The position numbers were made by a program, and so were the translations under genes. DNA of 64,000 nt from a virus (taxonomy: Duplodnaviria > Caudoviricetes): positions 11,802-75,801 of the IMG/VR virus record IMGVR_UViG_3300024549_000205; one strand, given 5' to 3'. The notes beneath the pieces were generated by a model. It searched no databases. It had not been told where the DNA came from and was given only the letters and a program-made list of their open reading frames with translations. Below, piece by piece: positions 6,301 to 23,233 of the stretch; the first letter of the stretch is position 1; each line of letters opens with the position of its first letter.

Positions 6301-8073
6301 CAAGAATGATTTACCTACAGTTACTAAAGGTTCGAAGTTTAATTTAACATGTAAGTTACGAATAGCAGTGCTTAACTTATTGATTTCTAAGATTTTAGTA
6401 TATCTATCTTCAGGAGATACTGGTTTCTTATATAGTTTTTCCCATTGCTCTCTCAATGATTTTACAAGAGAATCAATTTTTGGGTTACCTGTGCTCTCTG
6501 AGTTAATAGGAACTGGAAGTAAGTATAGATTTGTTTCTTCTAATGAATTTAGTTTACCTATTTCCATAGATGTAGGAGCAGAGAATCCACTTTCAGGTTT
6601 TCCTTCAACTGCATAGTTGTAGTTGATAACAAATGGAATCATCCTCGCTTTTCTTAATTGAGCAGGTTGTAATCCATAGTTATATAAAATCTTAGTGTAC
6701 TCACCCATCTGAGCTTTCCAGTCTTTCTGTTTACCCCAGTGAATATCTTCATCCACACTTTTGTTTACAGATGTAGTTTTCCAGTCAAGGATATCCACTT
6801 TAATATCATCTGTTCCATCTTCTTTTTGATAAGGTTCAAGAGCCATGAAATCAACTGCAGATGCAAGTTTACCTTTCACTCTCTGATTAACCACCTTAGC
6901 TTCTAATATGAAACGTGTACCTGGTTTGTAAGAGCTGATGAGCTCTGTAGCAAATGCTTCTATTCTTGTTTGAACTTTAGGATCAAGTTTAGTTGCTATA
7001 GCATTGGTTAATGCTACATCTCTTTTATATCCATCTTTATCTATAAGATTGTTAGTTACAAATTTATATATATAATCATGTATTTCAGTTCCCCAGTCTT
7101 TCTTCTGATCATCTAAGAACTTCTGAAGATCAGTTCTATCAGGAAGAGTTTTTTTAAGTGATGCTGTTACAGAAGGAATTTGTTCAGGTAGATCATCAAG
7201 AACATAATGTCTTGGTATTTTTTTACCTGACTCATCTGTTGTTTCATCCACCACTTTTAATCTATTACTAAAATCTATAACTGTATCGTAGAGTTTATCT
7301 ACAATAGAGTTTTTAACTTGATAGAATATACCACCATTAGTAATATTAGAAACTACTCCACCTACATTAGCAGATAACACTTTACGTGAAGTTTGTTGGA
7401 AGATATCTATATTAGATTTTCTATATTGTCCTCTGATGAAATCAAGAATAGTATCCCACCATTTTTGTACCATAGAACGTTCTGTTTCAGCCATTAGTTC
7501 AGGAAACTGTGTAGAGCCTTCAGATTGATTGATAATTAATTCAGCTATAAGTTTATCTACAGCTTCTTTTTTTATCTTTCTAATATCTGGTTTTCCATTA
7601 GCTAACTGATACGCTTTCTTTCCTTTATATGCTTTTAATGTTTCATCATAGATTTTAAATCTAGTAATTTTAGAAATCATTTCTGTAACAAGCTTTGGAT
7701 TAGTTTGTTCTAATATAGCTGTAGCAATGTGCACCACCTCTTCTGTTAAAGTGTATCCTTCCATTCCTTGAGCAATAGCTATTACTCCTTTAATAAGATC
7801 AGCAAGACCATTGACTCCTTTAGTATCTATATCAGGATTACCTTTAGAATAATCTTCTAAAGTTACAATATCTAAATCCATTTGCTTAGCAACATCTTTC
7901 ATCATAGCCACTGTTTCATTAGAAGCTTTTGATGCAGGATGTTCAGTTTGAAAATATTCTTTTTGAGGAACTTCCCCTTCGTAAAATTCCCAAAGATAGT
8001 GGGCCATGTTTTCACCTCTGGCAGTCACTAAGGACTGCCATTCTTGTGAACTAGTATTTATACAACTTATCAT
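3322..8073 (-). CDS. Large virion cargo/ejection protein with a degenerate zincin-like region and a PD-(D/E)xK nuclease domain
   Basis: EEVVH...KKEAVDKLIA; WGTEIH...E...AVDFM...ILDWKT...QMGEY (RecB/Cas4-like); lies directly after the RNAP gene, as in crAss-like phages. Confidence 0.7.
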   Translation of the reverse strand: MISCINTSSQEWQSLVTARGENMAHYLWEFYEGEVPQKEYFQTEHPASKASNETVAMMKDVAKQMDLDIVTLEDYSKGNPDIDTKGVNGLADLIKGVIAIAQGMEGYTLTEEVVHIATAILEQTNPKLVTEMISKITRFKIYDETLKAYKGKKAYQLANGKPDIRKIKKEAVDKLIAELIINQSEGSTQFPELMAETERSMVQKWWDTILDFIRGQYRKSNIDIFQQTSRKVLSANVGGVVSNITNGGIFYQVKNSIVDKLYDTVIDFSNRLKVVDETTDESGKKIPRHYVLDDLPEQIPSVTASLKKTLPDRTDLQKFLDDQKKDWGTEIHDYIYKFVTNNLIDKDGYKRDVALTNAIATKLDPKVQTRIEAFATELISSYKPGTRFILEAKVVNQRVKGKLASAVDFMALEPYQKEDGTDDIKVDILDWKTTSVNKSVDEDIHWGKQKDWKAQMGEYTKILYNYGLQPAQLRKARMIPFVINYNYAVEGKPESGFSAPTSMEIGKLNSLEETNLYLLPVPINSESTGNPKIDSLVKSLREQWEKLYKKPVSPEDRYTKILEINKLSTAIRNLHVKLNFEPLVTVGKSFLNNARTSLDDFAKIDYNTISKEELDKKLGDLIEYGVSAVKFTSMDQVFLSEYTREGMTDDNKKILKELEHIASMAGRMLNEISELQNQYAVHLGIKEGVTTEETKTTILKAEKEIDGFAKTFLEGSKLSAKIIKLASNMLMNANSLVNIEFSRKMKEYEKLLIPLEKEAAARGVNAFDLIGTMSPTGLNLIRKFDVAFWNKLKDAREKRDKDFFLKNMNIEEYDKLSKAAIDKGLTDLDKTVFSNDQEEDSLQRTWRKAKLRDSLDIHSEYFDGYDNYRFKQLFRETMIEDGKYSKEYEDLRKNKAAHDVWQFFSDLNAKARQMGYLDKQGSSFFPLIEATILQKFAQTNDVTAQAKESLWTDFYQTRINEGQNLSKIDPETGKVRKSIPKYFTQTDKAVNQLSTDLNKVGAMWVKSLLEYESSKNLENTLLTLHAVEKSKGSLIVENGVVQFTDGELSVNESENKNADILQVIIEDGLYKLGQDLGSLGNVGFATFGEKFGKTEEEKEAKTVNAKKLLSNADTLTRSLAVGLKPLIAIANFIGYNFQAFVNGGTMYSFAEFQKNNLKVVTGKGFTVIQKGLLDLIVPLNEDVTTEERRKIAKKQGLGKYLSTWTFTDVMMSTNSFAERRLQMGNALSIIDNSMVVDGKIVNIVQYLKQQDRNARKELSESERKALEKSFNERVKELKESSSLDKVATIENDEVIIPGVSDSELAKFRTSIIEYGRKLNGQMNEDNKAGYRRDTIFSSFMMFKNWMPKLVAEHTLGIDKNAELDKWEYGRTRAFVKTWQHVGFRNISKMRAIITGTDEGLQILNEMLEAKKLDYFRKTGQELEITEEEFQDLIREQIGNQMKELYLLFGMMSLVLAAKAAEPPEDATEEEKNRYKWYLKLVNKVSDEITFYYNPLSFESMTKGSVIPSLGLLSRATQVFWYTGREMYGQVSGDEEMIEKSHPTKYFFNMIPVAAQFQNELLPYLYPELAKEQGIRVTGESRSR

Positions 8074-8074
8074 A

Positions 8075-11000
8075 TTAACAAATTTCTTTTCTAACTTCTT
8101 TTAATATTTTCCCAATTTCTTCATTACTATATCCAAGTTTAATTAACATGTCTATACCAATGTCACTTAAGTTATAAGACTTACCATCTTTTAACACACG
8201 CTCTTTGGTTGATCTTGGTGCTTCTACCACTGGTTCAGCCACTGGAGCAGGAGCTTGAGGGTCGTTGTTTATACTTCCATTGTCATTATCAAAACCAAAC
8301 TCTTGTAAAAGTCTTTGTTTTAAATATGCATATGTCTGAGGAGCTTTTTCTTTTAGCTGTGCTAAACCTGTACCCAATCCATCTTTAGGCATCACTACAG
8401 TTTTGCCTGTTGCTTTGATTTTAGCTATGTCACCATCAATGATCTGTCTGTTCTTGATTAAGTCTTTGTCTGACATAAAAGCAGCTTCATCCATCGAAGG
8501 AGTAATTTTTGTAGCTATTCCCATAGCGTTAGGATTGTTTCTGATTTGAGCTTGGCCACCCATTCCAACTCTTTGAGTGTTATCTCCAAATACATAAATC
8601 TTATCTGGATTAGCTTGTACGTCAGCAACAGAATATCTGTCTACCACTTCTACATTTTTAGTTGGTTGGATTGTAGCTACCACTGGTGTTGTTCCTAAAA
8701 GAGCCAATTCAATTTCACTATCTTCTACTTCTCTCATCACCTTCATAAATCCATTGTCTAATACAGATGGTCTAGATACTGTTGAGTTAGGATCCAAAGG
8801 AAACTCTTTACCGTAAAACTCTTGAGCTCTATATGAATCACCCCAAGCATTAATCATTTTGTATACATAGTTTAGGTAGGTTCTTTCAACTCCATTTTTA
8901 CCTTTGAATGTAGATTCTTGTATTAAAGGAACTCTTTTACCTTCATCATTTATTTTGTATACCTTTTTGAATAATCCTTTATTGACGTGAGAAGTATCTC
9001 CAATTCTTCTAGCCTTAATTCTTTGAGCTTTTGTAATTTGTCCTTCGTAAGAATATGTCATGAAATCACTTCTTCCTTCTCTTGAACGAATTGGTATTAC
9101 AACCATTTCAGGAAGTTCTCCATTAAGCATCTTCTTCTCTAGTTTCTTACTTAAGAATTGTCTTTCTGGGTAGTACCAATTTCCAGGAGTTGCTTTACTT
9201 TCTTGCAATCTTCCTTTCTTAAATACAACAACGTTAGTGTTATTCCAGTTGCTTCTCTCCATTGTATCTAACGTTTTAAAGTCCGCTAAGTTAGGGATAT
9301 TTTCTAAATTAGACAACGTTTGGTTGTAAAATTCTTTAAAATCATCATAAGGAAGAAGGTTAGTAAATGCAATAGGAGAGTTTGTAAGTCCTGATTGTAT
9401 TACAGCAAGTCTAACAAGCTTACCATAAAGATCTTTGTTCTCATCACCAAGCTTTTCTTTTAACTCATTGAATCCATAGATGATCATGTTTTGGTCATAC
9501 ACCTTAGCGTCTTTACCTTTGATAGAGATGTTATCTGGACTAGCAATAAACATATTCATCATTTTTCTAGATTCCTTAGGTGCATATCCTAACTTCATCA
9601 ATAACTCAAGACTTATATTTTCTCTTTGATATACATTACCATCTTTTAGTTTATATTCATCCAATACAATCTTTTTACCACTTTCTAATTGTAATGATTT
9701 AAGAATCATGTTGTTATGTAAAGGATGTGTTTCATCTTTTAACACCTTATCTCTAAATTCAATAATTTGTTTAGCAGCACTCTTTTCTGTTGAGTTACCT
9801 AATAATATTTTCTTAACTGAGTTGTTAAGTTTTCTATCGTTCTGTACAGCCCAGTCAAAAAGATCATTCACTGCTTTCTGAGAAATCTTAATAAAATCTC
9901 TATCACTCATTTCTGTATAAGGAGCTAACACTTGTTCCATCACCTTTCTGACATTCTTTTTATCAGAGATTAAGATTTCAGCAAATGCATCACGTACACC
10001 ATATATAACATTAGCAAGCTCACCTACAAAAGAGTTCTTAAGAATACTATCTACAGCAGGTACCACTTCATTCTTTTCATTTATAGAAGAAAACATCGTT
10101 CTTTGTGCTTTAGCAAGTTGCATTTGTTTCTTGAATACTAAATATGGATCATTGATTGTTGCAGTGTCAAAATTAGATCCTTGTGTAACTTGGAACATAT
10201 GACTAGCCATCATAGCGTATTTTAAAAACTCATCTAATATATAATTCTGTTGAGCTAACTCTGAAGGACTCATTTTCTCAGGAGATTTACCCATCATGTC
10301 ATACAAATCTGTCTCATTAGGGATTCCATTTACAACAACATTGTCCTCTGTTAAATAATCATATTTAACATCATCAACAAATTTTTCAATGAACAACCAT
10401 GAGTATCCATTGTTTTGGATTGTTCTCAAGTAATCACGGATGATTGGTTGGTTCATGAAATAACCTACTGTGTTAATAGGCACACCAAGCTTAACTAAGA
10501 ATAACCATGTAGAAGCTACATTAGGAGTAGCTCCCATCTCCATAATCCAAGGACCTTTGGAGATATCCACATATCCATCGATAAACTGTCCAATAGTATC
10601 AGAGATGTATGTTTTGTCATCAGCACTCTTTATTTTAGATAGAGTGGCACGTTTAACTCCATTAACCATAACTGAGTTGTACTCATTGAAGTTAATTTGA
10701 CCATCACCTAACCATCCTGCATCTACTGGATCAACTGTTGTTTTTATTTTAACTGGATCTACATAAATAAGACTACGTTGATTTTGAGCATGGTTAGTTT
10801 GATTCACCGCAGCAATACCAATTGCATACTTACCTGTAACAAACGCATGTCTCAAGTTAGTCATAAATGCTCTACTCAACATGTTACCTACAGCACCATA
10901 GTCAATCTTAGTTCTACCAAGTTTATCATTAATCTTATCAGTTAATTCTTTAAGATCATCTGCAGAGTTAGGTTTAATTAAGTTATCAAAGTTAAGGTCG

Positions 11001-14000
11001 TTAGAAATTAACTTCTGTAATGATTGGATGTATTCATTCTCTAATGACTGTCTGTAAAGATCATTAATTACATCTTCTCTTTGTGTTGAGTATTGTTCAG
11101 GGAAAATAGCTTCCATTAATCTATCTTCAGCCTCTCCTTTGGAAAGAAGTTTTTTAGAGTTTAAGTACTCATTAAATTCTCCAGCATCATACATTTTACC
11201 AAACTTATCAATGGCTTCTTGACCTACACCTAAGTAAGGAACCACTTTAGGTTTTTTGTCATTGCTAGGATATATGTTTTTCAAATAGATTGACAACTTA
11301 TCAATATCAAAATCCGATCCAGCTTTCATAACAAGTTCTGAAGGAATAACAACTGAGTCTTTATATCCTTCAGGTAAGAACTTAGCTATCTCAAATACAT
11401 CAATAGAGTTTTGTTTCTGTGTTGGAATACGGAATGCCACACCCATAATAGCTTCAAACTCTTTCTTGCCTTCTGGATCATTATTGAAATAATTAATAAG
11501 CTCCTCATCAGACATATCTGATTTAAACCATTTACCCACCATTAACTGACAAACATTTATTGTCTTACCGTTCTCATTTCTAGTGTAGAACTTAAGTAGG
11601 TTAGAGCTATAAACATTCTTACCTTTAACTACTTGTTGCCCAGGTCTTTCTGATTCTAATAATGTAGAAGGAATCTGTACCTTCATACCTCCAGATATCT
11701 TAGGAGATACAACGTTCTTATCAGCAATAGAGTAAAGAATGTTTCTGATTTGTTGGTATGCAGGAGTAGCCTCCAATACAACATCTCCAGACTTAAATCC
11801 TTTTAGTGCATCACTGATGTTATCATTCACTTCTCGTTTCAAGATCTCATCTCTCAACGTGTCAGTTAGTTTATTAATATTACTTATTATGAATCCATCA
11901 GCAGTTTTTGTTATACCAAGTTTCTTAAGAAGAGATTTGTATCCATACTCTATCTTAGCATTTAACATGTCTTGGTTATGCTTAATGTCTTTGTATAGTT
12001 CAGACTCTTTTAGTTTTTGCTCAGGAGATAGTTTTATCCATTTAATGAATCTAGCATTGAAATCTCCGTTATTAACATCAAAGTCAATTGGCACACCAGC
12101 TTCCATAAAGTCTAATGTAGCAAGTTTAGTCACCTGAGATCCTTGTGTTACATAAGCTGCATCTTTAGAAGGAACTTCTGCTTGTACACCCATAATAGCA
12201 AACGGTATGTTTGATACTGCTTGTTTCTCATAGATGTTAATACCAGCATTAGCATCTTCGAATGGTGTCTCATCGAACTTACCTTTTTTATCATATAAAG
12301 GAGATATCTTCTCAGCACCCACTTTACTTCCTGATTCAAAAACAGCATAGTCAATGTTCTCTTTCTGCATCTTGTCATACAACTTGATAGCATTAGAGTC
12401 AGGATTCATTTTGTGAAGTAGTCTGAATGATAGAGGAAGTAATGCAAACTTATGTAGTACAACATCATTGTAATCTCTACCATTAGCTTTATTACCAGAC
12501 ACAATAGGTTTTCTAGGAGTGTATGTACTCGCTACCTCAGGACTGTTTCTATCAAATTTTTCTATCTCTCTCTTACTAGCTCCTGATCTAACAAGATCTT
12601 CGTACGCCATATCATGTCGATATTGAGCTTCATTAGCTTCAGTCCATTCTCCAGAACGTATTCCAAATACACGATTGGCTTTTAACATAATGTATCCACC
12701 ACCATCAGTTTCTTTATATGGGTCATAATCTTTAAGATCACTAACACTCAATATATCTCCAAGAGTGATTGTTCTAAAATAATCTAATGTCATATCAGTG
12801 TAACCAGCATCTCCAGGTTTGAATCCTTTGTTATAGATTTCATTAAGAGCAGCATTTACATCTTGTGATCCTACTAAAAGAGCTTGTCTAGGAGAGTTAA
12901 AGTTTTTAATACGTTTCAACTCATCAGAATACTGATAAGGGTCTGAATATAATAACTTGTGCATCTCGATGTTAGCTATCATATAATTGATAGACAACAC
13001 TTGAAGTTGGTCTCTTAAAGTTTTTTCATTTAATTCTAACTCATTATCAAGTTTGATATCGTCAATAGTTAATCCTTCGCTACCATAGTATACAATACCA
13101 TAGTTTTTAAGAAGAGCTTCTGTATCTGCAGCATCTTTTTTAATGAACTCATCTACAGCTTCATTAATTTCAGATCTGAATCCTTTGAATCCTTCTGAAG
13201 GTTTTCCATTGTACAACTCTTCAGCTGTATATTTTCTATAAGCTCCTTTTGTTATTTTATTATTAAGCTCTTCACCTAAAATAGATTTAAAGAAACGTAA
13301 GTCTGTTGGCTTTCTATTTTCATTCTCAACTATATTACGTCCATCTCTAGCAAGTTCCACTTCAGATATAAAATAGTTTTTAAAGATTTCATAGTGATCT
13401 TTGTCAGCATATTCTTCTTTAGTTACGAATGCTAAATCATTGTGCATTTTAACAGCCCATTCAATAGCAGCATCTCCAGGAACAAGATTTAAGTAGTATC
13501 CATTTAAGTTAAGATTGATTTCTTGAACAAGTCTCTCTTTAGCTGAAAGTTTAGAACTTTCTTTCTTTACACCACGAACTTGATTATCCATACCATCAAT
13601 GTATACAGACTTCATTAAGTCTTGTGTACCAGCAATACGTTTACCTGTTCCTTTTGTAGGATGTAAGTTGAACATCTTCTGCATCATCACACTTCCTTTA
13701 GCAAATACGTCATTACGTAAATATTCGTATTGTTTGTATGCAGGATTGCTTGATAACTCAGTGATGTTATCTAGTTTAGAAAGAATGTTGTGTAATCCAC
13801 TCAACGCGTTCACACCAATATAAGTTTGTGTACGTTCTCCATTCATGTTGAAGTATGTACTCTCGAATTCTTTATTTTCAATAACAGCCTGCACAAGTCC
13901 TAATTGGAATAAGTTTCCTTCTATGTTTAATGCTCTAGGAGTTAAACTAACTATACCTCTAGCAACTTCTCCATTAGCTTCGTCATTTTCAATCTCAGCA

Positions 14001-17000
14001 TCAGTTTTAGCTTTACCTTTATCGTTCAAATCAGAGAAGACTCTTTTTATTCCTTCTACAGCACCTCTAAAAGCTAATGCTTGATTATCAGTTAATCTAC
14101 TTAATGCTTTGATATTGAACTCAATACCTAATTCATTAAGTAACGCTGTATAAGTTGTCAAGTCTGAACCACTCAATGGCATAGACTTAATCTTATCTGT
14201 AGCATAATATCTTCCTGTCTTAGGTTCGTAAGAGAAGAATGTAGAATTAGATTTAATTTTGTCAACCATAGTGTTGGTCATATCACGCTTAGCTTGTTTA
14301 GCTGCACTAGTTAATGTTGAATCACTAACTACTACATCTCCACCAGGCATGATGAATACAGATATAGCATCAGCATTCTGACTCTTCATTGATTTCCAGA
14401 ACGCAGTGATAAGTTGCCATGATGACTCATCTAATGATCTAACATCAATTGGTGCAGTAATAGATGATTTTGTAAGTCTTGTGTACAAGTTCTCAAAGTT
14501 AGGATCTCCTTTAGCCATTTCTCTAAGTCTATCCAACATATCATCAATGTTTACAGAATCGAAAAGTTTGTTTTTCAATCTAATAAACACTGAATCAGCA
14601 GGAATAAGAATAGCACCACCAATAGAAGATTTTTCAACTTTCAATTCTCTTTCTCCTTTTTCATTCACACCTACGTATGAAAGAGGAAGAGTTCCTAGTA
14701 ATAACTTAACAGCACCGTTTGCTTTTCTGAATGAATCAATCTTTCTAGCATCTCCAAAAGGATCTTCTTTACTTTTCTCAAACTCACTAATGTCAAGCTC
14801 ATCATTCTCATCAAACTGTATATTGAATGTTTTAAGCTTCTCTTTGTGTCTCTCAATAATAGATTCCCATTGAGCATCTACAGTGTCATATAATGTTCCA
14901 ATATCATTGTATAATTTATCACCTTCTTCTTCAGTAAGACGACCATCTCTCTTATCTTGTTCTATAAGATCTGCTTGATGACCAATCACATCTAGTATTC
15001 TCACATTAAGCATTTCGTAAAGCTCTTTCTGTCTAGGTTTAACTATGTTGAATAAGCTTTCTTTTCTCTTAATAAGATCAGTAAGAGTAATGAATGTCAT
15101 CTCGTCAATTATCTCATGTAACTGAACAGCAGGGATTCCTGTTACTCTCAAATCAGAAAAATCATCAGCTGAAGCATTTTCAATATCAATCACACCCACA
15201 TTAGCATAAGCTAACTGAGATACATAAGGATTGAATGTATTGTAATATCCATCACCTATCTTGTTGAATAACTCTTTTGTATTACGTTGAGCATCTTTAC
15301 CATAGAAGAATGACTTGATGAAATCAATCAATTGAGAGAACAACTTACCAATCAAACTCTTAGAGGCAATTGATTTACCTAATTTATCATTAAGTACAGC
15401 ATCTCTGAATTCCTCAGCAAGTTCTTCTTTGATTTGATGAGCTGTCGCATATTTGTATTCAACTGTTCTACCAGTTTCTCTATCTACGAATGTTCCTTCT
15501 CTACTTGTAAACTCTTTAAGTATGGCTTCTTTTTCTTTTGCATCAGCAAACATTTTCCATACAGCTTCAAATACCTCGTGGTACACAGTACCTACCTCAG
15601 CATTTTCGTATATATAGATAGCTCCATTATGAAGCATACCCCAAGCTTGTTTACCATTAGTAGCTTGAATGATGTTCTTCACTCTGTATACAGGAATGTT
15701 TGGGAACTTCTCACCAATCCATTTCTCTAACTTCTTCCAATCTTCACCTTGGAACTTCTTAGCTTGTCTAGCTACAACAACACGCATTGCAGCATCATCA
15801 GGTTTTTGTCCTCTTTGTCTACTAGCAAACTTACTTGGCTTAGCAGTTTGTTCTGTAGCTGGTGGAGTTACTATTACTTCTTCAGTGCTTTTTAATGTAG
15901 CTAGTTCTGCATTTAATCTATCATTTATTAATTTACTTCCTGAAAAATAATCTCCTAAATAATAATTTAAACCTTTTATTGTTTCAGGTAAAAATTTTGG
16001 ATTAAACATATTATCTGCTTTATCTCCTTCAATTACTTCTTTCATTAAGCCAATACCTAATGGACCATATCTTAAAAATGTAACATCATCTTTTCCTTGT
16101 TCAATTTTACCATCTACTTGAAATCTAACTGAAATTTTATTTGTAAGCTTTAAGTTATCAGATATATTTTGATCACGTAATTCAGAAGATTTTTCAACAG
16201 CATCAACTATAGCTTGAACTTTATTTGCATTACCAATATAAATAGTTATATTTTTTCCAGGTTGTCCGCCATCTTTTCCAATTTTATACCCTTTAATTAA
16301 ACCTTTAGATTTTAAATCATCTAGAATTTTAATTGTTTCAGTAGCTCTACTTCTAATTTCATCTGCTGGTGTATCATCATTTTCACTTTCAAATTGTTCA
16401 ACACCTTTAATTGAAAGATGCATTTTCCAACCTTTGTTTACATCTTTTTCAAAATTATCTATATTACTTTTTAAATTTGGACTTATTACTTCTTCAGTAC
16501 TTTCTAAAGCTGCTAGTTCTGCATCATATTTAGCATTGATTTTATCTGCATTAAGTTCTGCAAGATTATTTGGTAGACCAGAAGGACCTTCTAAACTAGC
16601 AAGCAATGATGCACTATGTTGTGTAGCAATTGGTTCAATATGTTTTGATAATACATCTCTAATTTGATCCTTAGTTAAATTAGGAAAATTATATAACATA
16701 TATTGTTCAAACTTCTTAGGATCATAAGCTGCGTAACCTTCATAATCATCAGTTATGTAAGGATTGCTTCCTGGTATATCAAATATTCCATCTATAGCTA
16801 ATGTTAGTAATTCTTTATCTTGTTCAGATAAAGATGCGTCATCAGAAACTTCTTGTTTTAATTTATTTCTAGTTTCCTCTAACGTATCAAACTGTTCAGC
16901 TACTTTTGTTTTTAAATCTTGTACACCTAACTTTTTATTTTCTTCAAGTTCAGCTTGTCTTCTTTTTTCTATATCAGCTTTCTTATCAGTAACTTCAGGA

Positions 17001-20000
17001 ACCACTTCAACATTTGGTGTAAATGGTGTAGCAATAGCAGGAGCAACAGGAATCTTTAATGCTTCTAATTGTTGAAGCACCTTCATGTAGATATCGTTAC
17101 CAATTAACTGTTGAGCTTCTGCTGGAGAAACACCTTTAGCATCAGCAACTGAATTTAAAACTTCTCCATCAAAAGAACCAAATTGAATATTAAATCCTTG
17201 ACCACTCTCATTGAACTTTTTACCATCTAGTGTAAATGTTATTTTACCGTGACTTCCAATTTGAACGGTGTTCTCTGCTATTCCATCTAACACAAATGTT
17301 GTTTGTGGAGCATCTGAAGCAGGTATCTTAGACTTAGTTTGAAATGCATCTAATTGTGGTCTAATTTTAGCCAAGATGGCTCCATAGAAAATAGCTCTAG
17401 CTTTATCAAGATCTTTATTATTGCTAGGATCAAGACCTTTCTCAGTCATAAGTGCTGCCATTGTCTCTGCTTCAAATGTGATGCTGAAACCTTTTTCTCC
17501 TTTTGAATCTATATACTCTTGAGCATTTATCTTAAAAGGAATCTTACCAAACTTACAAGTGTATATGTTTTCTTCACCTTCTAAATTATATTCTTTTTGA
17601 GCACCAGGTTGAACAGTAGCAGCAGGAGCAGGTGTTTGTTGAGCAGTCTTATCTAATGCAACTAATTGCTCATCAATATATCTGTTCAAAAGATATTTAC
17701 TAACAGCACTCATCACCTTATCCTCATCACCTTTTAGAGGTTCAAGGATTGGAGTTAAGTCACTTTGTAATTGTGCTTGATCTAAAGTTTCTTGCCATGC
17801 TTCATACGCAGCTTCATTAATAGTTTTGAAAATATTATCCATTAATGGAGCAATATTTTCTTCAGCATTAATTGCTGTTTTGATTTTCTCCAATGCATCT
17901 TTACTTACAGTGACTGCAGTTTTAGTAGGAGCAGCTGGTGTAGGAGCTTGTGTAACTACAGGAGGAGGAACTGGAATTTCATAGCTATCAATAGTAGAAT
18001 CCAATGTAAAATAGATTCCTTTCTTGTTAGGAACAGAAGGATCAGTCAATGGTCTCACTTGTGTAACTAAAGGTATCTCTTCGTTAGTTCTCCCTTCAGC
18101 TGATAATAGATATGTTTGGTAGTTATCCCAATCTCTTTTGATAGGTTGACCAGCTTCATCTATACCAATAATCTCTGTATATTTTTTCTTGAATGACTCT
18201 GTGTTAACCTTAGTGGAGTTTACATTATTGTACATACCTCTAAGAATAGCTTTGATTTCATTTTCACTATTCTGTAATCCATTTACAGTGAAATCAAATC
18301 CTTCGCCACCAAGTCCTGATAAGAATAATTTAGGATAGGTTACATTACCTTCTGTAACATTCTCAAACCATACACTATTGTATCCAGGATTTTTTTTCTC
18401 TTTTGTTTGAGTGTTTCTTGGAATGCCCCAATAAACAACAGTCTTTAACCAGTTGAATAAGTACTGTGTTTCAGCTGTCTTAGTGGTACCATCTTTATCA
18501 ACATTCTTAGTCACTTGAAGTAGAACATCATATATAGTATTCACTTCATTTTCTGTAAGGTTTCTGTTTTTTAGTTTAAGTAATCCACCTGGAACTTTTA
18601 AGAACACTCTACCTAATGGAGTGTTAAATGTCACACTACCATAAGTAACAGCTTCATTTTTTGTAGCAACCATTAATACAGGATCTTCAAGTAAAGCTCC
18701 TTCTTCTAATAGTCCTGTTTCTTCTACAGCCACTCTAGCATCATAGTCTCTTACATCTTTTCCTTTATCATCTTTGTATGTTACATAATCTGGAATACCA
18801 AATGATGCAGATATAGATTGTGGAGTGGGAACTGTTTCTTCTGCTAAACGAGCAGCTCTCCATTTATTATATTGTTGTTTTAATGACTCTTGTGCTGGAG
18901 TTAGTTTACCATCAGTAGTCATTTTTCTGAACATAGAACCTCTTTCTCTCTTACCATCTTCACTTGTATAGGTAGCTTCTAATTCATCAGCAGGGAATAC
19001 TTGAAAGATAGCATGTTTAGTAGGATCAGCCAGTTGTTCTTTTGTTAAAGGAACACCGTTCTCATCAACTAGTGTGTATGTATTATCATCATTGTCTTGT
19101 ACCATTACAAGAGCAATAATCTTATTAGGATTGATAGGTTTACCTTGACTGTCTATAGCTCTTCCTTCATCAGTCAAATAGTTCATAAGGCCATCTATGC
19201 CAGCTTCTGCTTCTGTAGCAGCAGTGACAATCATTCCACGAATAGAACCTTTGTTTGCAAACTTATGCATGTTGAAACCAAAACGGTTTGCTCTTGCATG
19301 ATGTTCTCTTATTTGCTCACCTTCTCTACCTCTAGTAACAGCAATAGTAGATCCTACTACTTCAAGGTCATCTTTCTTAGATGATGCTTCGTAGAATTCA
19401 TTACTGAAGAAACTTTGTACGTCCTTACTGTTTGTACCTAGGTATTCTGCTTGAAGAGCTTGATCACTTTCTAATTTCTTCTTCTCTGCTTCTTGCTGTT
19501 TATATTTGTCAGCAACCTGCTTGAACTTATTAAGAATCATTTCTTTAGCCTCAATCTCTTTCTGTACATCATCAAGAGCACCTTGCATAATATCCATGTG
19601 CTCAATAAGATCTTTTAGTCTTTGTTCGTTAGGAGTTATTTCAAGATCTTCAGTCTCAGCAATAATATCATCAATTAGTTGTAAGTCTGAACGATAATTA
19701 GGCTTCACTTTAAGAAAGTTAGGATTGGCTTTCAAGAAATCAACCCAGTCTTGTCCCATAAGTCTAGGAACATTTGGATATCTAGACTCAAAGTTTGCTA
19801 TAAGGTTAGATAGATAGTCGATAGTAGCATCTAATGCTCTCTGAGTCTCTCTTGCTAACTTAGATAATGTAGAGATCTGTGCTTGAGTTGTCTCTTGTAA
19901 TATCTCAAGATCGATGATTTCATCTTGTAACTCATCCATGAAATCTTTGAAGTTAGTCGAGTACTCATCTATATTAGAAGCCATGTCTGTAATATAGTTA

Positions 20001-23000
20001 AGAGTAGCATCAATCTCTTCAGCATCCAGTTTCAAAGCTTCAATTTCTCTTTCTAATTGCTCTTGCATTCTAGATAGACGCATAGCATTATCGATAGCTC
20101 TTGCTGTAACAGCTTTAAACTTATCAACTTTCTTACTACGTTTATCTAATTCAGCTGCTTCAATTTCTTTAGTCAACTTCTCATATTCCTCTTTTGCTTT
20201 AACAACTTCTTTTTGTTTTGCATCAATTGTTCGTTCAATCTTAATTTGTTTATCAGCTAATGTATCAAACAAATCATTTAATATACCAAGACGTGCTTCA
20301 CGTTTAGCTTGTATACGTGGATCTTCTTCAGCAGTGTATTCATCTTTTGCTTTTTGTTGAACTGCAGTTAATGGTCCAACTTCTCTAATCATAGGTTCTG
20401 TGAACCCTTTCTTTTTATTTGCTTCAGTTAGTTTGAATTGATCTCCTGTAACTTCAATCTCTTTAATCTCTCCTTTTTTGTTTTTATACTTGAAGAGCAT
20501 TTGATCAGTCTCAGGATTATATTCTATCCTACCTTTTTGTTTACCATACTTCTTACCAAAGTTGAATTCATACACCATATTCCAATGTTCCATGTAGAAC
20601 TTGGCTTTCTTATTATTTAATGTAGAATCTACTTTACCAAGGTTATATCTTTCTAATGTAGATTCTTTTAAGTCATGGATAACACCATCTGAGTCTTGCA
20701 CCTTAATAGTGCCATCTTCATTTCTACCCAATACAACCATTCTAGGAGCACGATATACTTCATATCCTTTATCATCAAAATCAACAACTTTTCCTAAAAA
20801 GTATTCAGTGCCTATTTCAATATCTCTAACACCTCTTTTAGTCTTAATAGAGATTGTTTCTTTGCTTGTTTTTGTATCTTCAGGAGTTTGAAACTCTTGT
20901 CTTTCTTCGTTATATTTTTGTGGGTTAGTAATAAGATCATTATACTCTTTAAGATATTCTTTTCTTCTTAATGACATTTCAAGAACATCTATTACATTCT
21001 GTTTAATGTCAGCTTTGTTAATATTAGAAGATAATTCTATTCCAATTAAAGCTTCTGCAATCACCTCAGATTGTGGATCAGTTAACTCTGCATTTAAAAC
21101 AGATTGTACATCCACTCCTTTAGATACAGGAAGCATAGATACTTCAGGAATACGAACATCATAGTCTGCCACTTTACTAGCAGCATAAATCATTTTATCA
21201 ATTACTTGATCAGAATATTTTCTTTGTGGTTGTCCTTTAGAGTTTAATATAGGATTACCTTCGTCATCTTTTAATATTTCTCCAGAATATCTCAAGTTAG
21301 TAGACTTGAATAGTTCTTCTGTATACTTAGCTGTTTGCTCAAAGTATGCAAGTTTGTTACTAAATGACTCAGCTGTGTCATTCATATTTGCAAGACCTAA
21401 TTGTTTAAGAGATGCCATACCATCAGGACTCATGGATTGTTTTCTCATGTCCTGAATGTCATCCATAACCATGTCCATTCTACCATACTTGATACGTGGT
21501 GCCAAGTAATTATGCATCATATCAGCATTAAGATCTTTTGCTTCCAACTTATCACCTGCCTCAATAGCAGCTTGTTGTTGCTCTTGAAGTACAACACCTC
21601 TATTTGCAGCATCTAATTTATATTGGAAAGCTTCTTTATATGTAGGAGCACCATTAAGTAATTCTAAGAAATCTGCAGTGTTTGATTTAGTAGCTTTACT
21701 CATCATGTAATTACCTTTAGCTTGCATAGCTGCTCCAGTAAGACCTCCAATAATACCTCCCTCAATTCCTTCTTTAGATACTAAAGCACCTACTCCTTCA
21801 CCAGATCCATCTCTACCAAACATACCATATAATACACCATCAACTAATACATTAGCCTCTTTTCCTTGGTACGCTTTGTTATAATAATTTTGTGTTCCTA
21901 TCTGTATAGCATATTGACCAATCTCTTGACCCATCTCTTTAGGATCAAAAGCATATTTACCTACTCCTTTAACTGTATTATATAATTTACCAAATTTAGT
22001 TTTAGCAACTTCTTCAGCAACATATTTTCCATCTTTTAATACAACATTATCAGCTCTTCCTAATAAACTGTTTGCAGCTTGTTTTTCCGCAGCATACGAA
22101 CTTCCAAGTAACTTAGGAAGTTGTATATATTCTGTAACACTTAATAGTGCCATATTGGCAAGGAAAGATGTTTTTCCTACTTTCTCTGTTTGTTGATCTA
22201 TTATCTTCAGCTCTTCAGCACTTGGTGCTACGCCAAAGTTATTCATCTTATATTGATCAATTAATTGTTGTCTAAACTGATTAGAAGTTTGTAATCCTTC
22301 AAATGCAGCTTCTCCAGCTTGAGAATATGCAGCTATACCTATTCTTCTACCTACATCATTAATTTTTGCAAATTGATTTGTCTCTAAAGCAATCTCACCC
22401 ATTCTACTTGTCTTTGCTGCAACATCAGCAATAGACGAAATTTCTCCTTCTAATAATGCAGCAGCTTCAGCATTCTTACCTGAAGAAAAAGCTCTTGCAG
22501 TGTTTCTCATTAATGGAGCGTATGCTTTAAATGTTTGAGATGCTTCTAATGCAGCAGCTCTAGCTGCAGCAGCTTCTCCAATAACAGTACCAGTAGCACT
22601 AAGTGCTTTAGAAGCAATATTACCAGAAATAATAGCACCTACAGCAAATCCTGAATTCTTAATCACTTTATCAAATAAAAAGTTTGCTGTCCACCAGTTA
22701 TCAGGAGAATACCATTCAGCATTCTTTTCTTGGTCTGTATAATAGTTAGGTAAGTATTCTTGATCTACTTTTTCATTCCATTTATCAATTTCTTGCATAA
22801 CAGGATTGTCCCATATATCAGCAAGTCTTCCTGTAAATATAGAAGAGATGGCACCACCCACTGTAGCAAATCCACCAACTACAGTTGTAGCTGCAAGATT
22901 TGTACCTTTTAATACACCATTTACACCTTTATCTAACCAAGACTGTTGAGCTCCCCAAGCATCTTCATTATTAGCCCCATAGATAACAGTGTCATATCTA

Positions 23001-23233
23001 CCTGTTAAATCTGATGCAACATCAGATAAATAAGTTTTATCTGCTTTAATTTCATTAGGATCTACTTGACGATTCTGAAGATTGATCATGTCATCTTGTG
23101 ACAAAGCTTTTCCTGATCTTGATCCAGGAAATCCTGTTGACAAAGGAGCTGAATTAATTGAACCAATATTAATTGGATCTGGACCTTTTACATAAGGTTG
23201 TCCATATAAATTTGGATTTGTAGGATCTGGCAT
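8075..23233 (-). CDS. Giant virion-packaged DNA-dependent RNA polymerase polyprotein (crAss type) with a zincin-like domain and inserted accessory domains
   Basis: Catalytic GSDFDIDK (11300-11314) preceded by FRIPTQ; zincin-like YHEVFE...EELAEEF; 5052 aa; position matches crAss-like cargo genes. Confidence 0.9.
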   Translation of the reverse strand: MPDPTNPNLYGQPYVKGPDPINIGSINSAPLSTGFPGSRSGKALSQDDMINLQNRQVDPNEIKADKTYLSDVASDLTGRYDTVIYGANNEDAWGAQQSWLDKGVNGVLKGTNLAATTVVGGFATVGGAISSIFTGRLADIWDNPVMQEIDKWNEKVDQEYLPNYYTDQEKNAEWYSPDNWWTANFLFDKVIKNSGFAVGAIISGNIASKALSATGTVIGEAAAARAAALEASQTFKAYAPLMRNTARAFSSGKNAEAAALLEGEISSIADVAAKTSRMGEIALETNQFAKINDVGRRIGIAAYSQAGEAAFEGLQTSNQFRQQLIDQYKMNNFGVAPSAEELKIIDQQTEKVGKTSFLANMALLSVTEYIQLPKLLGSSYAAEKQAANSLLGRADNVVLKDGKYVAEEVAKTKFGKLYNTVKGVGKYAFDPKEMGQEIGQYAIQIGTQNYYNKAYQGKEANVLVDGVLYGMFGRDGSGEGVGALVSKEGIEGGIIGGLTGAAMQAKGNYMMSKATKSNTADFLELLNGAPTYKEAFQYKLDAANRGVVLQEQQQAAIEAGDKLEAKDLNADMMHNYLAPRIKYGRMDMVMDDIQDMRKQSMSPDGMASLKQLGLANMNDTAESFSNKLAYFEQTAKYTEELFKSTNLRYSGEILKDDEGNPILNSKGQPQRKYSDQVIDKMIYAASKVADYDVRIPEVSMLPVSKGVDVQSVLNAELTDPQSEVIAEALIGIELSSNINKADIKQNVIDVLEMSLRRKEYLKEYNDLITNPQKYNEERQEFQTPEDTKTSKETISIKTKRGVRDIEIGTEYFLGKVVDFDDKGYEVYRAPRMVVLGRNEDGTIKVQDSDGVIHDLKESTLERYNLGKVDSTLNNKKAKFYMEHWNMVYEFNFGKKYGKQKGRIEYNPETDQMLFKYKNKKGEIKEIEVTGDQFKLTEANKKKGFTEPMIREVGPLTAVQQKAKDEYTAEEDPRIQAKREARLGILNDLFDTLADKQIKIERTIDAKQKEVVKAKEEYEKLTKEIEAAELDKRSKKVDKFKAVTARAIDNAMRLSRMQEQLEREIEALKLDAEEIDATLNYITDMASNIDEYSTNFKDFMDELQDEIIDLEILQETTQAQISTLSKLARETQRALDATIDYLSNLIANFESRYPNVPRLMGQDWVDFLKANPNFLKVKPNYRSDLQLIDDIIAETEDLEITPNEQRLKDLIEHMDIMQGALDDVQKEIEAKEMILNKFKQVADKYKQQEAEKKKLESDQALQAEYLGTNSKDVQSFFSNEFYEASSKKDDLEVVGSTIAVTRGREGEQIREHHARANRFGFNMHKFANKGSIRGMIVTAATEAEAGIDGLMNYLTDEGRAIDSQGKPINPNKIIALVMVQDNDDNTYTLVDENGVPLTKEQLADPTKHAIFQVFPADELEATYTSEDGKRERGSMFRKMTTDGKLTPAQESLKQQYNKWRAARLAEETVPTPQSISASFGIPDYVTYKDDKGKDVRDYDARVAVEETGLLEEGALLEDPVLMVATKNEAVTYGSVTFNTPLGRVFLKVPGGLLKLKNRNLTENEVNTIYDVLLQVTKNVDKDGTTKTAETQYLFNWLKTVVYWGIPRNTQTKEKKNPGYNSVWFENVTEGNVTYPKLFLSGLGGEGFDFTVNGLQNSENEIKAILRGMYNNVNSTKVNTESFKKKYTEIIGIDEAGQPIKRDWDNYQTYLLSAEGRTNEEIPLVTQVRPLTDPSVPNKKGIYFTLDSTIDSYEIPVPPPVVTQAPTPAAPTKTAVTVSKDALEKIKTAINAEENIAPLMDNIFKTINEAAYEAWQETLDQAQLQSDLTPILEPLKGDEDKVMSAVSKYLLNRYIDEQLVALDKTAQQTPAPAATVQPGAQKEYNLEGEENIYTCKFGKIPFKINAQEYIDSKGEKGFSITFEAETMAALMTEKGLDPSNNKDLDKARAIFYGAILAKIRPQLDAFQTKSKIPASDAPQTTFVLDGIAENTVQIGSHGKITFTLDGKKFNESGQGFNIQFGSFDGEVLNSVADAKGVSPAEAQQLIGNDIYMKVLQQLEALKIPVAPAIATPFTPNVEVVPEVTDKKADIEKRRQAELEENKKLGVQDLKTKVAEQFDTLEETRNKLKQEVSDDASLSEQDKELLTLAIDGIFDIPGSNPYITDDYEGYAAYDPKKFEQYMLYNFPNLTKDQIRDVLSKHIEPIATQHSASLLASLEGPSGLPNNLAELNADKINAKYDAELAALESTEEVISPNLKSNIDNFEKDVNKGWKMHLSIKGVEQFESENDDTPADEIRSRATETIKILDDLKSKGLIKGYKIGKDGGQPGKNITIYIGNANKVQAIVDAVEKSSELRDQNISDNLKLTNKISVRFQVDGKIEQGKDDVTFLRYGPLGIGLMKEVIEGDKADNMFNPKFLPETIKGLNYYLGDYFSGSKLINDRLNAELATLKSTEEVIVTPPATEQTAKPSKFASRQRGQKPDDAAMRVVVARQAKKFQGEDWKKLEKWIGEKFPNIPVYRVKNIIQATNGKQAWGMLHNGAIYIYENAEVGTVYHEVFEAVWKMFADAKEKEAILKEFTSREGTFVDRETGRTVEYKYATAHQIKEELAEEFRDAVLNDKLGKSIASKSLIGKLFSQLIDFIKSFFYGKDAQRNTKELFNKIGDGYYNTFNPYVSQLAYANVGVIDIENASADDFSDLRVTGIPAVQLHEIIDEMTFITLTDLIKRKESLFNIVKPRQKELYEMLNVRILDVIGHQADLIEQDKRDGRLTEEEGDKLYNDIGTLYDTVDAQWESIIERHKEKLKTFNIQFDENDELDISEFEKSKEDPFGDARKIDSFRKANGAVKLLLGTLPLSYVGVNEKGERELKVEKSSIGGAILIPADSVFIRLKNKLFDSVNIDDMLDRLREMAKGDPNFENLYTRLTKSSITAPIDVRSLDESSWQLITAFWKSMKSQNADAISVFIMPGGDVVVSDSTLTSAAKQAKRDMTNTMVDKIKSNSTFFSYEPKTGRYYATDKIKSMPLSGSDLTTYTALLNELGIEFNIKALSRLTDNQALAFRGAVEGIKRVFSDLNDKGKAKTDAEIENDEANGEVARGIVSLTPRALNIEGNLFQLGLVQAVIENKEFESTYFNMNGERTQTYIGVNALSGLHNILSKLDNITELSSNPAYKQYEYLRNDVFAKGSVMMQKMFNLHPTKGTGKRIAGTQDLMKSVYIDGMDNQVRGVKKESSKLSAKERLVQEINLNLNGYYLNLVPGDAAIEWAVKMHNDLAFVTKEEYADKDHYEIFKNYFISEVELARDGRNIVENENRKPTDLRFFKSILGEELNNKITKGAYRKYTAEELYNGKPSEGFKGFRSEINEAVDEFIKKDAADTEALLKNYGIVYYGSEGLTIDDIKLDNELELNEKTLRDQLQVLSINYMIANIEMHKLLYSDPYQYSDELKRIKNFNSPRQALLVGSQDVNAALNEIYNKGFKPGDAGYTDMTLDYFRTITLGDILSVSDLKDYDPYKETDGGGYIMLKANRVFGIRSGEWTEANEAQYRHDMAYEDLVRSGASKREIEKFDRNSPEVASTYTPRKPIVSGNKANGRDYNDVVLHKFALLPLSFRLLHKMNPDSNAIKLYDKMQKENIDYAVFESGSKVGAEKISPLYDKKGKFDETPFEDANAGINIYEKQAVSNIPFAIMGVQAEVPSKDAAYVTQGSQVTKLATLDFMEAGVPIDFDVNNGDFNARFIKWIKLSPEQKLKESELYKDIKHNQDMLNAKIEYGYKSLLKKLGITKTADGFIISNINKLTDTLRDEILKREVNDNISDALKGFKSGDVVLEATPAYQQIRNILYSIADKNVVSPKISGGMKVQIPSTLLESERPGQQVVKGKNVYSSNLLKFYTRNENGKTINVCQLMVGKWFKSDMSDEELINYFNNDPEGKKEFEAIMGVAFRIPTQKQNSIDVFEIAKFLPEGYKDSVVIPSELVMKAGSDFDIDKLSIYLKNIYPSNDKKPKVVPYLGVGQEAIDKFGKMYDAGEFNEYLNSKKLLSKGEAEDRLMEAIFPEQYSTQREDVINDLYRQSLENEYIQSLQKLISNDLNFDNLIKPNSADDLKELTDKINDKLGRTKIDYGAVGNMLSRAFMTNLRHAFVTGKYAIGIAAVNQTNHAQNQRSLIYVDPVKIKTTVDPVDAGWLGDGQINFNEYNSVMVNGVKRATLSKIKSADDKTYISDTIGQFIDGYVDISKGPWIMEMGATPNVASTWLFLVKLGVPINTVGYFMNQPIIRDYLRTIQNNGYSWLFIEKFVDDVKYDYLTEDNVVVNGIPNETDLYDMMGKSPEKMSPSELAQQNYILDEFLKYAMMASHMFQVTQGSNFDTATINDPYLVFKKQMQLAKAQRTMFSSINEKNEVVPAVDSILKNSFVGELANVIYGVRDAFAEILISDKKNVRKVMEQVLAPYTEMSDRDFIKISQKAVNDLFDWAVQNDRKLNNSVKKILLGNSTEKSAAKQIIEFRDKVLKDETHPLHNNMILKSLQLESGKKIVLDEYKLKDGNVYQRENISLELLMKLGYAPKESRKMMNMFIASPDNISIKGKDAKVYDQNMIIYGFNELKEKLGDENKDLYGKLVRLAVIQSGLTNSPIAFTNLLPYDDFKEFYNQTLSNLENIPNLADFKTLDTMERSNWNNTNVVVFKKGRLQESKATPGNWYYPERQFLSKKLEKKMLNGELPEMVVIPIRSREGRSDFMTYSYEGQITKAQRIKARRIGDTSHVNKGLFKKVYKINDEGKRVPLIQESTFKGKNGVERTYLNYVYKMINAWGDSYRAQEFYGKEFPLDPNSTVSRPSVLDNGFMKVMREVEDSEIELALLGTTPVVATIQPTKNVEVVDRYSVADVQANPDKIYVFGDNTQRVGMGGQAQIRNNPNAMGIATKITPSMDEAAFMSDKDLIKNRQIIDGDIAKIKATGKTVVMPKDGLGTGLAQLKEKAPQTYAYLKQRLLQEFGFDNDNGSINNDPQAPAPVAEPVVEAPRSTKERVLKDGKSYNLSDIGIDMLIKLGYSNEEIGKILKEVRKEIC
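15872..16524. repeat. 41-nt imperfect direct repeats (15872-15912 and 16484-16524; 36/41 identical) bounding an in-frame 204-codon cassette
   Basis: tattacttcttcagtgctttttaatgtagctagttctgcat vs tattacttcttcagtactttctaaagctgctagttctgcat; they encode AELATLKSTEEVI and AELAALESTEEVI. Confidence 0.85.

Follow-up and report, generated by a model that had tools for sequence, protein, structure and literature searches.

An accessory phospho-lyase-like module in the hypervariable slot of a giant crass-like phage protein, and the family of sequences that shares it

Known phosphothreonine lyases come from lanthipeptide synthesis and from pathogens of animals and plants, which use them as type III effectors. 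In the lanthipeptide enzyme VenL, mutagenesis identified W50, K51, H53, K80 (the base), K103 and R149 as required residues, with Y108 also listed and D137 playing a partial role (PMC8341899), and in ThurKC the residues K65/H67/K94/K117/D152/R163/R191 correspond to SpvC K104/H106/K136/R148/D201/R213/R220 (PMC10604976). Here we describe a domain resembling these lyases in a 64,000-nucleotide window of crass-like phage DNA, which covers bases 11802-75801 of the 75.8-kb IMG/VR record IMGVR_UViG_3300024549_000205 (65% complete by CheckV). The domain, called the cassette below, lies at 15929..16483 (-) of the window and forms residues 2251-2435 (185 residues) of P0001, a 5052-residue open reading frame (ORF) at 8075..23233 (-) that encodes a putative virion cargo/RNA polymerase fusion protein. 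An earlier annotation made from the letters of the window, the sequence-only reading, had called this segment a phosphothreonine-lyase-like cassette. We hold with good confidence that the domain is homologous to the phospho-lyase fold group, and lyase chemistry is the likely prediction from its residues; that it is a catalytically competent phosphoserine/phosphothreonine (pSer/pThr) eliminylase carried as virion cargo is the explanation we favour, with moderate confidence.

The prediction starts from residue conservation. When 1.84 billion representatives were searched in full with HMMER, 23 relatives came up at E <= 1e-3, and these were combined with 25 loci from species genomes and with further matches, including those from word-indexed protein searches, into a family of 57. 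The motifs quoted in the sequence-only reading were all present, namely GWKMHLS (residues 2268-2274), GYKIG (2315-2319), GKNITIY (2326-2332), SVRF (2368-2371) and LRYG (2387-2390). W2269-K2270-M-H2272 (16418..16429, -) is a candidate W-K-x-H motif equivalent to VenL W50/K51/H53, ThurKC K65/H67 and SpvC K104/H106, and its Trp, Lys and His are kept in 54, 56 and 56 of the 57 family members. K2317 in GYKIG (16283..16285, -; Lys in 49 of 57) is the candidate catalytic base, matching SpvC K136, VenL K80 and ThurKC K94; it sits on strand 65-68 of the predicted model, and hhalign pairs it with SpvC K136. The segment K2327-N-I-T-I-Y2332 (16238..16255, -) has the K-x4-Y arrangement of VenL K103/Y108, with Lys and Thr in all 57 members and Tyr in 55; its T-I-Y is aligned to SpvC T156-L-Y158, which places Y2332 on Y158, and the counterparts at the position of K2327 are SpvC R148 and ThurKC K117. 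D2359 and R2370 (16124..16159, -), 11 residues apart, would correspond to ThurKC D152/R163 (11 apart) and to SpvC D201/R213 and VenL D137/R149 (both 12); this pair lies outside every tool alignment and was assigned by order and spacing only. The Arg is kept in 54 members, as is a Phe. The spacings in agreement are the identical K-x-H, the Lys-to-Tyr distance (5 versus 5), Tyr to Asp (27 versus 29) and Asp to Arg (11 versus 11-12). As judged from these alignments and distances, the invariant residues follow the order, and mostly the spacing, of the mutationally defined residues in VenL, ThurKC and SpvC. The sequence-only reading had claimed the signature of an OspF/SpvC-type lyase, and the K-x-H, base Lys, Lys/Tyr pair and Arg do occur in the published order. 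Its 'late Arg', R2388 in LRYG (16070..16072, -), falls in a column that is Arg in only 5 of 57 members and Gln in 40; by position only, R2388 may correspond to SpvC R220 or ThurKC R191.

The mapping onto LanKC/LanL enzymes rests on published numbering together with order and spacing. RamC_N was not found in the record of the window; among five genomes carrying family members it appeared in two at E 0.014-0.064, and in a sample of 401 genomes from the phylum of one family-bearing genome it was found in none.

Profile and fold comparisons point to the same superfamily. A language-model search, taken as a lead only, placed the cassette beside the VRP3/OspF and RamC_N clusters (score 0.86, 189-190 shared features). 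Of 22 family proteins scanned, 7 had sub-threshold, collinear matches to RamC_N, the best in P0028 (E 3.3e-5; 23.9 bits versus a cut-off of 27), and the NCBIfam LanKC/LanL models matched 3 of 10 family proteins, always through their N-terminal lyase part (best E 8.3e-5). When the 42-sequence alignment A3 was compared by hhalign with SpvC, OspF and a Microbulbifer homologue, a single alignment was obtained that pairs GWKMH with GDKFH (K104/H106), YKIG with WKVT (K136) and ITIY with FTLY (T156/Y158). A first structure model from 15 sequences (predicted local distance difference test score, pLDDT, 79.9) had ThurKC, SalKC and PneKC as its top fold matches. With a second model (AF2, 42 sequences; pLDDT 93.8, predicted template modelling score 0.89), Foldseek ranks 1-14 against the PDB were all SalKC, ThurKC, PneKC, CuvL or SpvC, at E values of 2.4e-3 to 8.9e-2 and probabilities up to 0.97, and VirA, OspF, HopA1 and LxmKY stood lower in the same list. 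These matches bear on an explanation that needs no lyase ancestry: the cassette might be a generic ferredoxin-like (beta-alpha-beta-beta-alpha-beta) spacer or ligand-binding domain, its motif likeness being chance or convergence, in a slot that takes any small folded passenger. Generic folds do match, but only over 72-94 residues of the core, whereas lyases alone align over 112-131 residues, across positions 12-185. The uninterrupted run of lyases at the head of the Foldseek list, the agreement of three independent model libraries and the language-model search on one superfamily, and invariant residues that are of charged or catalytic types in the published order all speak against a generic domain, which we regard as unlikely.

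Several results weigh against homology and lyase activity as the explanation. The cassette by itself gave chance rows only against PDB sequences (phmmer), nothing relevant in Pfam or PHROGs, and a chance FliL row in NCBIfam; the profile of alignment A1 likewise returned chance rows and no lyase from PDB sequences, and with SpvC as the sole target hhalign of A1 gave no match (probability 0.3%). The A3 alignment is itself statistically weak (E 0.034, probability 1.5%), and all hidden Markov model (HMM) matches of the relatives fall under curated cut-offs. In the Foldseek comparison that the sequence-only reading had proposed for the lyase fold, phospho-lyases alone lead the list, but no match reached E <= 1e-3 and the template modelling scores were 0.35-0.40; a BFVD fold search had a best E of 5.3e-2 at probability 0.21, into which we read nothing. 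Around the candidate base the loop lengths depart from the enzymes: His to base Lys is 45 residues here, compared with 21-31 in other family members and 27-30 in the references, and base Lys to the next Lys is 10 here, unlike the 23 of LanKC/LanL but similar to the 12 of SpvC. The extra LanKC loop is described as absent from SpvC and OspF in the ThurKC paper (PMC10604976). The acidic column (Asp or Glu in 49 of 57) is N2360 here and Asn in the five closest cassette relatives, with D2359 one residue earlier. Finally, neither an FHA nor a kinase partner was found in the record.

Some of these departures invite another explanation, in which kinship with the phospho-lyase fold is real and the domain has a different job, as a non-catalytic binder of phosphopeptide or phosphate, as a lyase or hydrolase of non-protein phosphoesters, or as an enzyme acting on co-packaged phage proteins. 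The Asn in the conserved acidic column of this clade, the change of Gln to Arg in the QYG motif and loop lengths around the base Lys unlike those of all reference enzymes would fit such a role, and the giant-protein partners of the family (methyltransferase, papain-like protease, FliG_M, ART) are too heterogeneous to inform on the substrate. However, the K-x-H, base Lys, Lys/Tyr pair and Arg are kept in 49-57 of the 57 members, a pattern that would be demanded by catalysis rather than by binding; VenL D137N keeps partial activity (PMC8341899); and the record yielded no kinase by which the phage's own proteins could be phosphorylated. We give a different job a low probability and retain the eliminylase as the favoured explanation. 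Neither the cassette nor P0028 reaches the curated gathering scores, those of RamC_N (PF25816) and VRP3 (PF03536) in the case of the cassette, and the domain is therefore filed as a member of neither Pfam family.

The sequence-only reading had described a 204-codon in-frame segment, bounded by direct repeats and more AT-rich than its flanks. The segment and its repeats were reproduced: 15872-15912 and 16484-16524 are identical at 36 of 41 positions, the extended repeats 15872-15929 and 16484-16541 at 47 of 58, the repeat-to-repeat spacing is 612 nucleotides (204 codons), and the segment is in frame within P0001. When the codons of 15500-16900 were shuffled 100 times, the best match of 41-mers came to 25-30 and never to 36. 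Copy A (16484..16541, -) encodes INAKYDAELAALESTEEVI (residues 2232-2250) with the canonical YDAELAAL linker motif; copy B (15872..15929, -), the second bracket copy and the more diverged one, encodes INDRLNAELATLKSTEEVI (residues 2436-2454) and is followed by conserved backbone. The guanine-cytosine fraction does dip, to 0.27-0.29 over 15850-16750 versus 0.33-0.39 on both flanks, but both this AT-rich zone and the stretch that relatives lack reach further upstream than had been described, to about 16900-17008, so that two modules are inserted here, the cassette being one. The cassette of the earlier annotation is thus real, within a wider insert of about 390 residues that comprises two modules and sits in a hypervariable slot at 15836..17008 (-) (residues ~2076-2466), between the anchors '...KIPVAPxxATPFTPN' and 'SKFASRQRGQxPDD'. 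Upstream of the lyase-like domain (module 2), module 1 (16541..16927, -; residues 2103-2231) lies between two bracket helices, the first of which, DKKADIEKRRQAELEENKKL (16928..16987, -; residues 2083-2102), is also present in relatives L002 and L008, where the slot is otherwise empty. Module 1 has no Pfam family and, over residues 2100-2231, no usable Atlas neighbour; like the cassette, it is missing from the closest relatives.

The slot was compared among 80 related IMG/VR loci (40-88% identity), fetched through the conserved downstream block of residues 2460-2800. The lyase-like domain was absent from the giant ORF in all 80, with a working positive control, and from all six frames of the same loci (1.54 Mb); it was also absent from all five whole records of relatives, of which two are 100% complete and have terminal repeats, in a scan that detected the window's own record at E 6e-43. 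The presence/absence comparison proposed in the sequence-only reading thus shows that the cassette is no part of an invariant core. Homology to the ten closest loci extends to residues 2075-2100 and resumes from residues 2423-2467, with 21-97 residues between these points in the relatives versus about 320-390 in the window. What fills the gap differs by lineage: a bare linker in L001, just two helices, DKKADIEERRKAEL... and ...INAKYDAEIAAL, in L002 and L008, a small domain resembling the FtsK-gamma winged helix by eye in L003 (residues ~2070-2166 of its giant ORF), and other inserts in L005, L009/L053 and L020. It is therefore a hypervariable passenger slot, and that of the window holds two passengers, module 1 between the bracket helices and then the lyase-like module with the second bracket copy. 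A weak FtsK_gamma match was also seen together with a lyase-like domain in family member P0017.

The brackets themselves are not private to this insertion. A YDAELAAL-type motif occurs within 200 residues upstream of the anchor in 9 of the 80 relatives, and within 25 residues in 5 of those, which makes it a recurring linker of the backbone; that the repeats were left by the insertion of a mobile DNA element was considered and dropped, as the motif is a protein linker common to relatives without the cassette. The module travels. Unrelated giant proteins contain it at 45-74% identity: P0002 (2034 residues) has the cassette with both brackets, at 69% identity over 214 residues, and is otherwise unlike P0001; P0003 has it upstream of, and adjoining, an ART-PolyVal domain; and P0032 (1978 residues), another phage protein, carries it at the N-terminus (~45% identity), with a remainder homologous to the gene neighbouring P0001 in the window (3322..8073, -; 1583 residues). 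Since the cassette of P0032 is fused to a homologue of that neighbouring gene, the module moves between different giant virion proteins. The domain is, then, an accessory and mobile module. Exchange by recombination within shared linker codons would be the most economical mechanism, and the YDAELAAL linker is probably the recombination site.

By sequence comparison, the relatives collected here form an unannotated family of more than 50 members. Its members are either free-standing proteins of about 190-290 residues or modules of giant proteins of 1000-3555 residues, and the partner domains of the latter are heterogeneous (methyltransferase, papain-like peptidase with FliG_M, CrtO-like, ART-PolyVal). 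The word-indexed protein searches contributed 9 proteins in one case and 4 longer proteins in another, and a further one returned the query itself only. Other routes added nothing: tblastn of the cassette against 50,697 phage records gave no match, an IMG/VR pattern scan found 26 fitting stretches of which none was confirmed, the cassette had no match to RamC_N or VRP3 even at E <= 10, and P0028 against PDB sequences yielded chance rows and no lyase. The named genomes (L082-L106) are mostly Saccharibacteria, Peribacteria/Peregrinibacteria, Levyibacteriota, Gracilibacteria, Woesearchaeota and Planctomycetes. Free-standing members in candidate-phyla bacteria adjoin housekeeping genes (10 neighbours at 3 loci), with neither a kinase nor a mobile-element signal among these neighbours, so their context gives no functional clue.

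Some further features of the family were noted. The taxa that bear it are symbionts with small genomes and organisms that make giant proteins. A Woesearchaeota protein of 1833 residues (L098:4086-9584, +) joins a papain-family peptidase, a FliG middle domain and a lyase-like domain, and a Planctomycetia protein of 3149 residues (L096:33-9479, +) joins a class I methyltransferase domain to a lyase-like domain. A distinct subfamily pattern, GWKLHLNV...HK[FY]LSGGE..DGK[IV]FT[IV]YIGS...GRF, is found in L098, L099 and L101-L106, from Woesearchaeota, Gracilibacteria, Planctomycetales and Caenarcaniphilales.

How the domain might reach a host depends on the protein that carries it. By tblastn, residues 3401-4400 of P0001 matched Cellulophaga phage phi14:2 g066, annotated as 'catalytic RNA polymerase subunit' (E 9e-18, 86% query coverage, 21.8% identity), with the homologous region at 10433..12997 (-), residues ~3413-4267; many crAss-like records were matched by the same query. 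The stretch immediately past the cassette also resembles crAss-like proteins, one of them annotated as a putative RNA-polymerase subunit. A phmmer search of the polymerase region against PDB sequences gave 0 matches, and the assignment therefore rests on tblastn to phi14:2. At the C-terminus of the ORF (8315-8641, -; residues ~4865-4973) are DUF7831 (PF25176, E 5.3e-37) and phrog_2072. In crAss001, RNA-polymerase-associated proteins have been detected in virions and placed in a capsid cargo zone, and their ejection is expected (PMC10172136). Given the phi14:2 homology and these cargo data, the earlier label 'virion RNA polymerase polyprotein' is a fair one, and a crAss-type virion RNA polymerase in the same ORF as the cassette was recovered as claimed. 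By analogy with crAss001, the product of the giant ORF is probably carried in the particle of this phage, and we infer its packaging and injection.

Taken together, residues 2251-2435 would form a compact alpha/beta domain of the 5052-residue virion RNA-polymerase fusion protein. By homology, K2270 together with K2327/R2370 would hold the phosphate and the backbone carbonyl, K2317 would abstract the alpha-proton and H2272 would protonate the leaving phosphate, yielding dehydroalanine or dehydrobutyrine, which could not be re-phosphorylated. Crassvirus RNA-polymerase-associated proteins belong to the capsid cargo and are expected to leave the particle before the DNA does, so that the domain would arrive in the host cytoplasm at the start of infection, where it may act on host phosphoproteins; action on host kinase-based defence or signalling is an attractive suggestion.

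The same chemistry could in principle serve biosynthesis, with the cassette as the lyase half of a split lanthipeptide-like dehydratase (an enzyme for peptides made on the ribosome and modified after translation) whose kinase is encoded elsewhere and which dehydrates Ser/Thr of phage or host peptides. Its closest structural relatives are indeed lanthipeptide lyase domains, including the split LxmK/LxmY, but the 75.8-kb record, 65% complete, has no match to Pkinase or APH, Pfam finds neither a kinase nor a cyclase domain in the giant ORF, and the 10 housekeeping neighbours of free-standing members include no kinase; we consider a split dehydratase very improbable. The sequence-only reading had seen no kinase in the window, which the Pkinase/APH search of the whole record confirms, and its more speculative suggestion that virion proteins are cross-linked gains no support from the same search.

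In the literature searched, with subscription journals and supplements outside the search, no phage-borne or virion-protein phospho-lyase is described, and neither phage nor virus is mentioned in a genome-wide survey from 2014 of eliminylating domains. If active, the eliminylase would arrive ready-made and counter host Ser/Thr-kinase signalling irreversibly, being in place before phage gene expression, and phage counter-defence against kinase-based immunity could be tested directly with a small soluble domain. For the evolution of crassvirus cargo proteins, the locus shows a hypervariable slot with a recurring helical linker that accepts varied passenger domains. The unannotated family, for its part, spans candidate-phyla bacteria, DPANN archaea and Planctomycetes. 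A joint account of these observations is conceivable, if doubtful: a new, widespread family of irreversible phosphate erasers may serve as an injected weapon, which crass-like phages would load as a plug-in of their RNA-polymerase cargo, destroying the pSer/pThr marks of host kinase immunity or stress signalling within seconds of entry, and which candidate-phyla bacteria, DPANN archaea and Planctomycetes would use in their own free-standing or giant-protein versions against partner or rival cells. Were this phosphate-eraser account true, eliminylation would be in general use in conflicts between microbes and would not be peculiar to pathogens of animals and plants.

Among known systems, the LanKC/LanL-type lanthipeptide lyase domains are the best fold matches to the cassette and span the whole domain, and VenL and ThurKC have W-K-x-H, K-x4-Y and the spacing of the tentatively assigned Asp/Arg pair in common with it (PMC8341899, PMC10604976). 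In LanKC/LanL, however, the lyase shares one polypeptide with a Ser/Thr kinase and a LanC-like cyclase; the cassette has no fused kinase or cyclase and is thus not a lanthipeptide synthetase. The cassette also lacks their loop between the base Lys and the Lys that follows, and has a longer helix from K-x-H to the base Lys; LanKC/LanL enzymes belong to biosynthetic clusters while the cassette lies inside a phage virion protein. Against the LanKC/LanL/RamC_N models the cassette itself falls under every cut-off, and its family relatives are sub-threshold and collinear. The type III effector phosphothreonine lyases OspF, SpvC, VirA and HopAI1 (VRP3, PF03536) have no significant sequence similarity to the cassette, which also lacks their mitogen-activated protein kinase docking motif region; here the vehicle would be a phage capsid and the target a bacterium. 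HopA1 and the class V lyase LanY (LxmY; PF17914) are only 8-13% identical to the cassette, with no HMM signal, and LanY, unlike the cassette, works in complex with the LanK kinase. The words lyase, phosphothreonine, OspF, HopA1, RamC and crAss are all absent from the main text of the study of polyvalent proteins of phages and conjugative elements by Iyer et al. 2017 (PMC5512222), so a phospho-lyase module is not among the module types described there. Those proteins are likewise giant and multi-domain, bringing shuffled effector modules into the host, and the likeness extends to the cassette relative P0003, with its adjoining ART-PolyVal domain. The cassette is best described as likely representing a separate, new family of the phospho-lyase fold group, used as a plug-in module of giant proteins of the polyvalent type.

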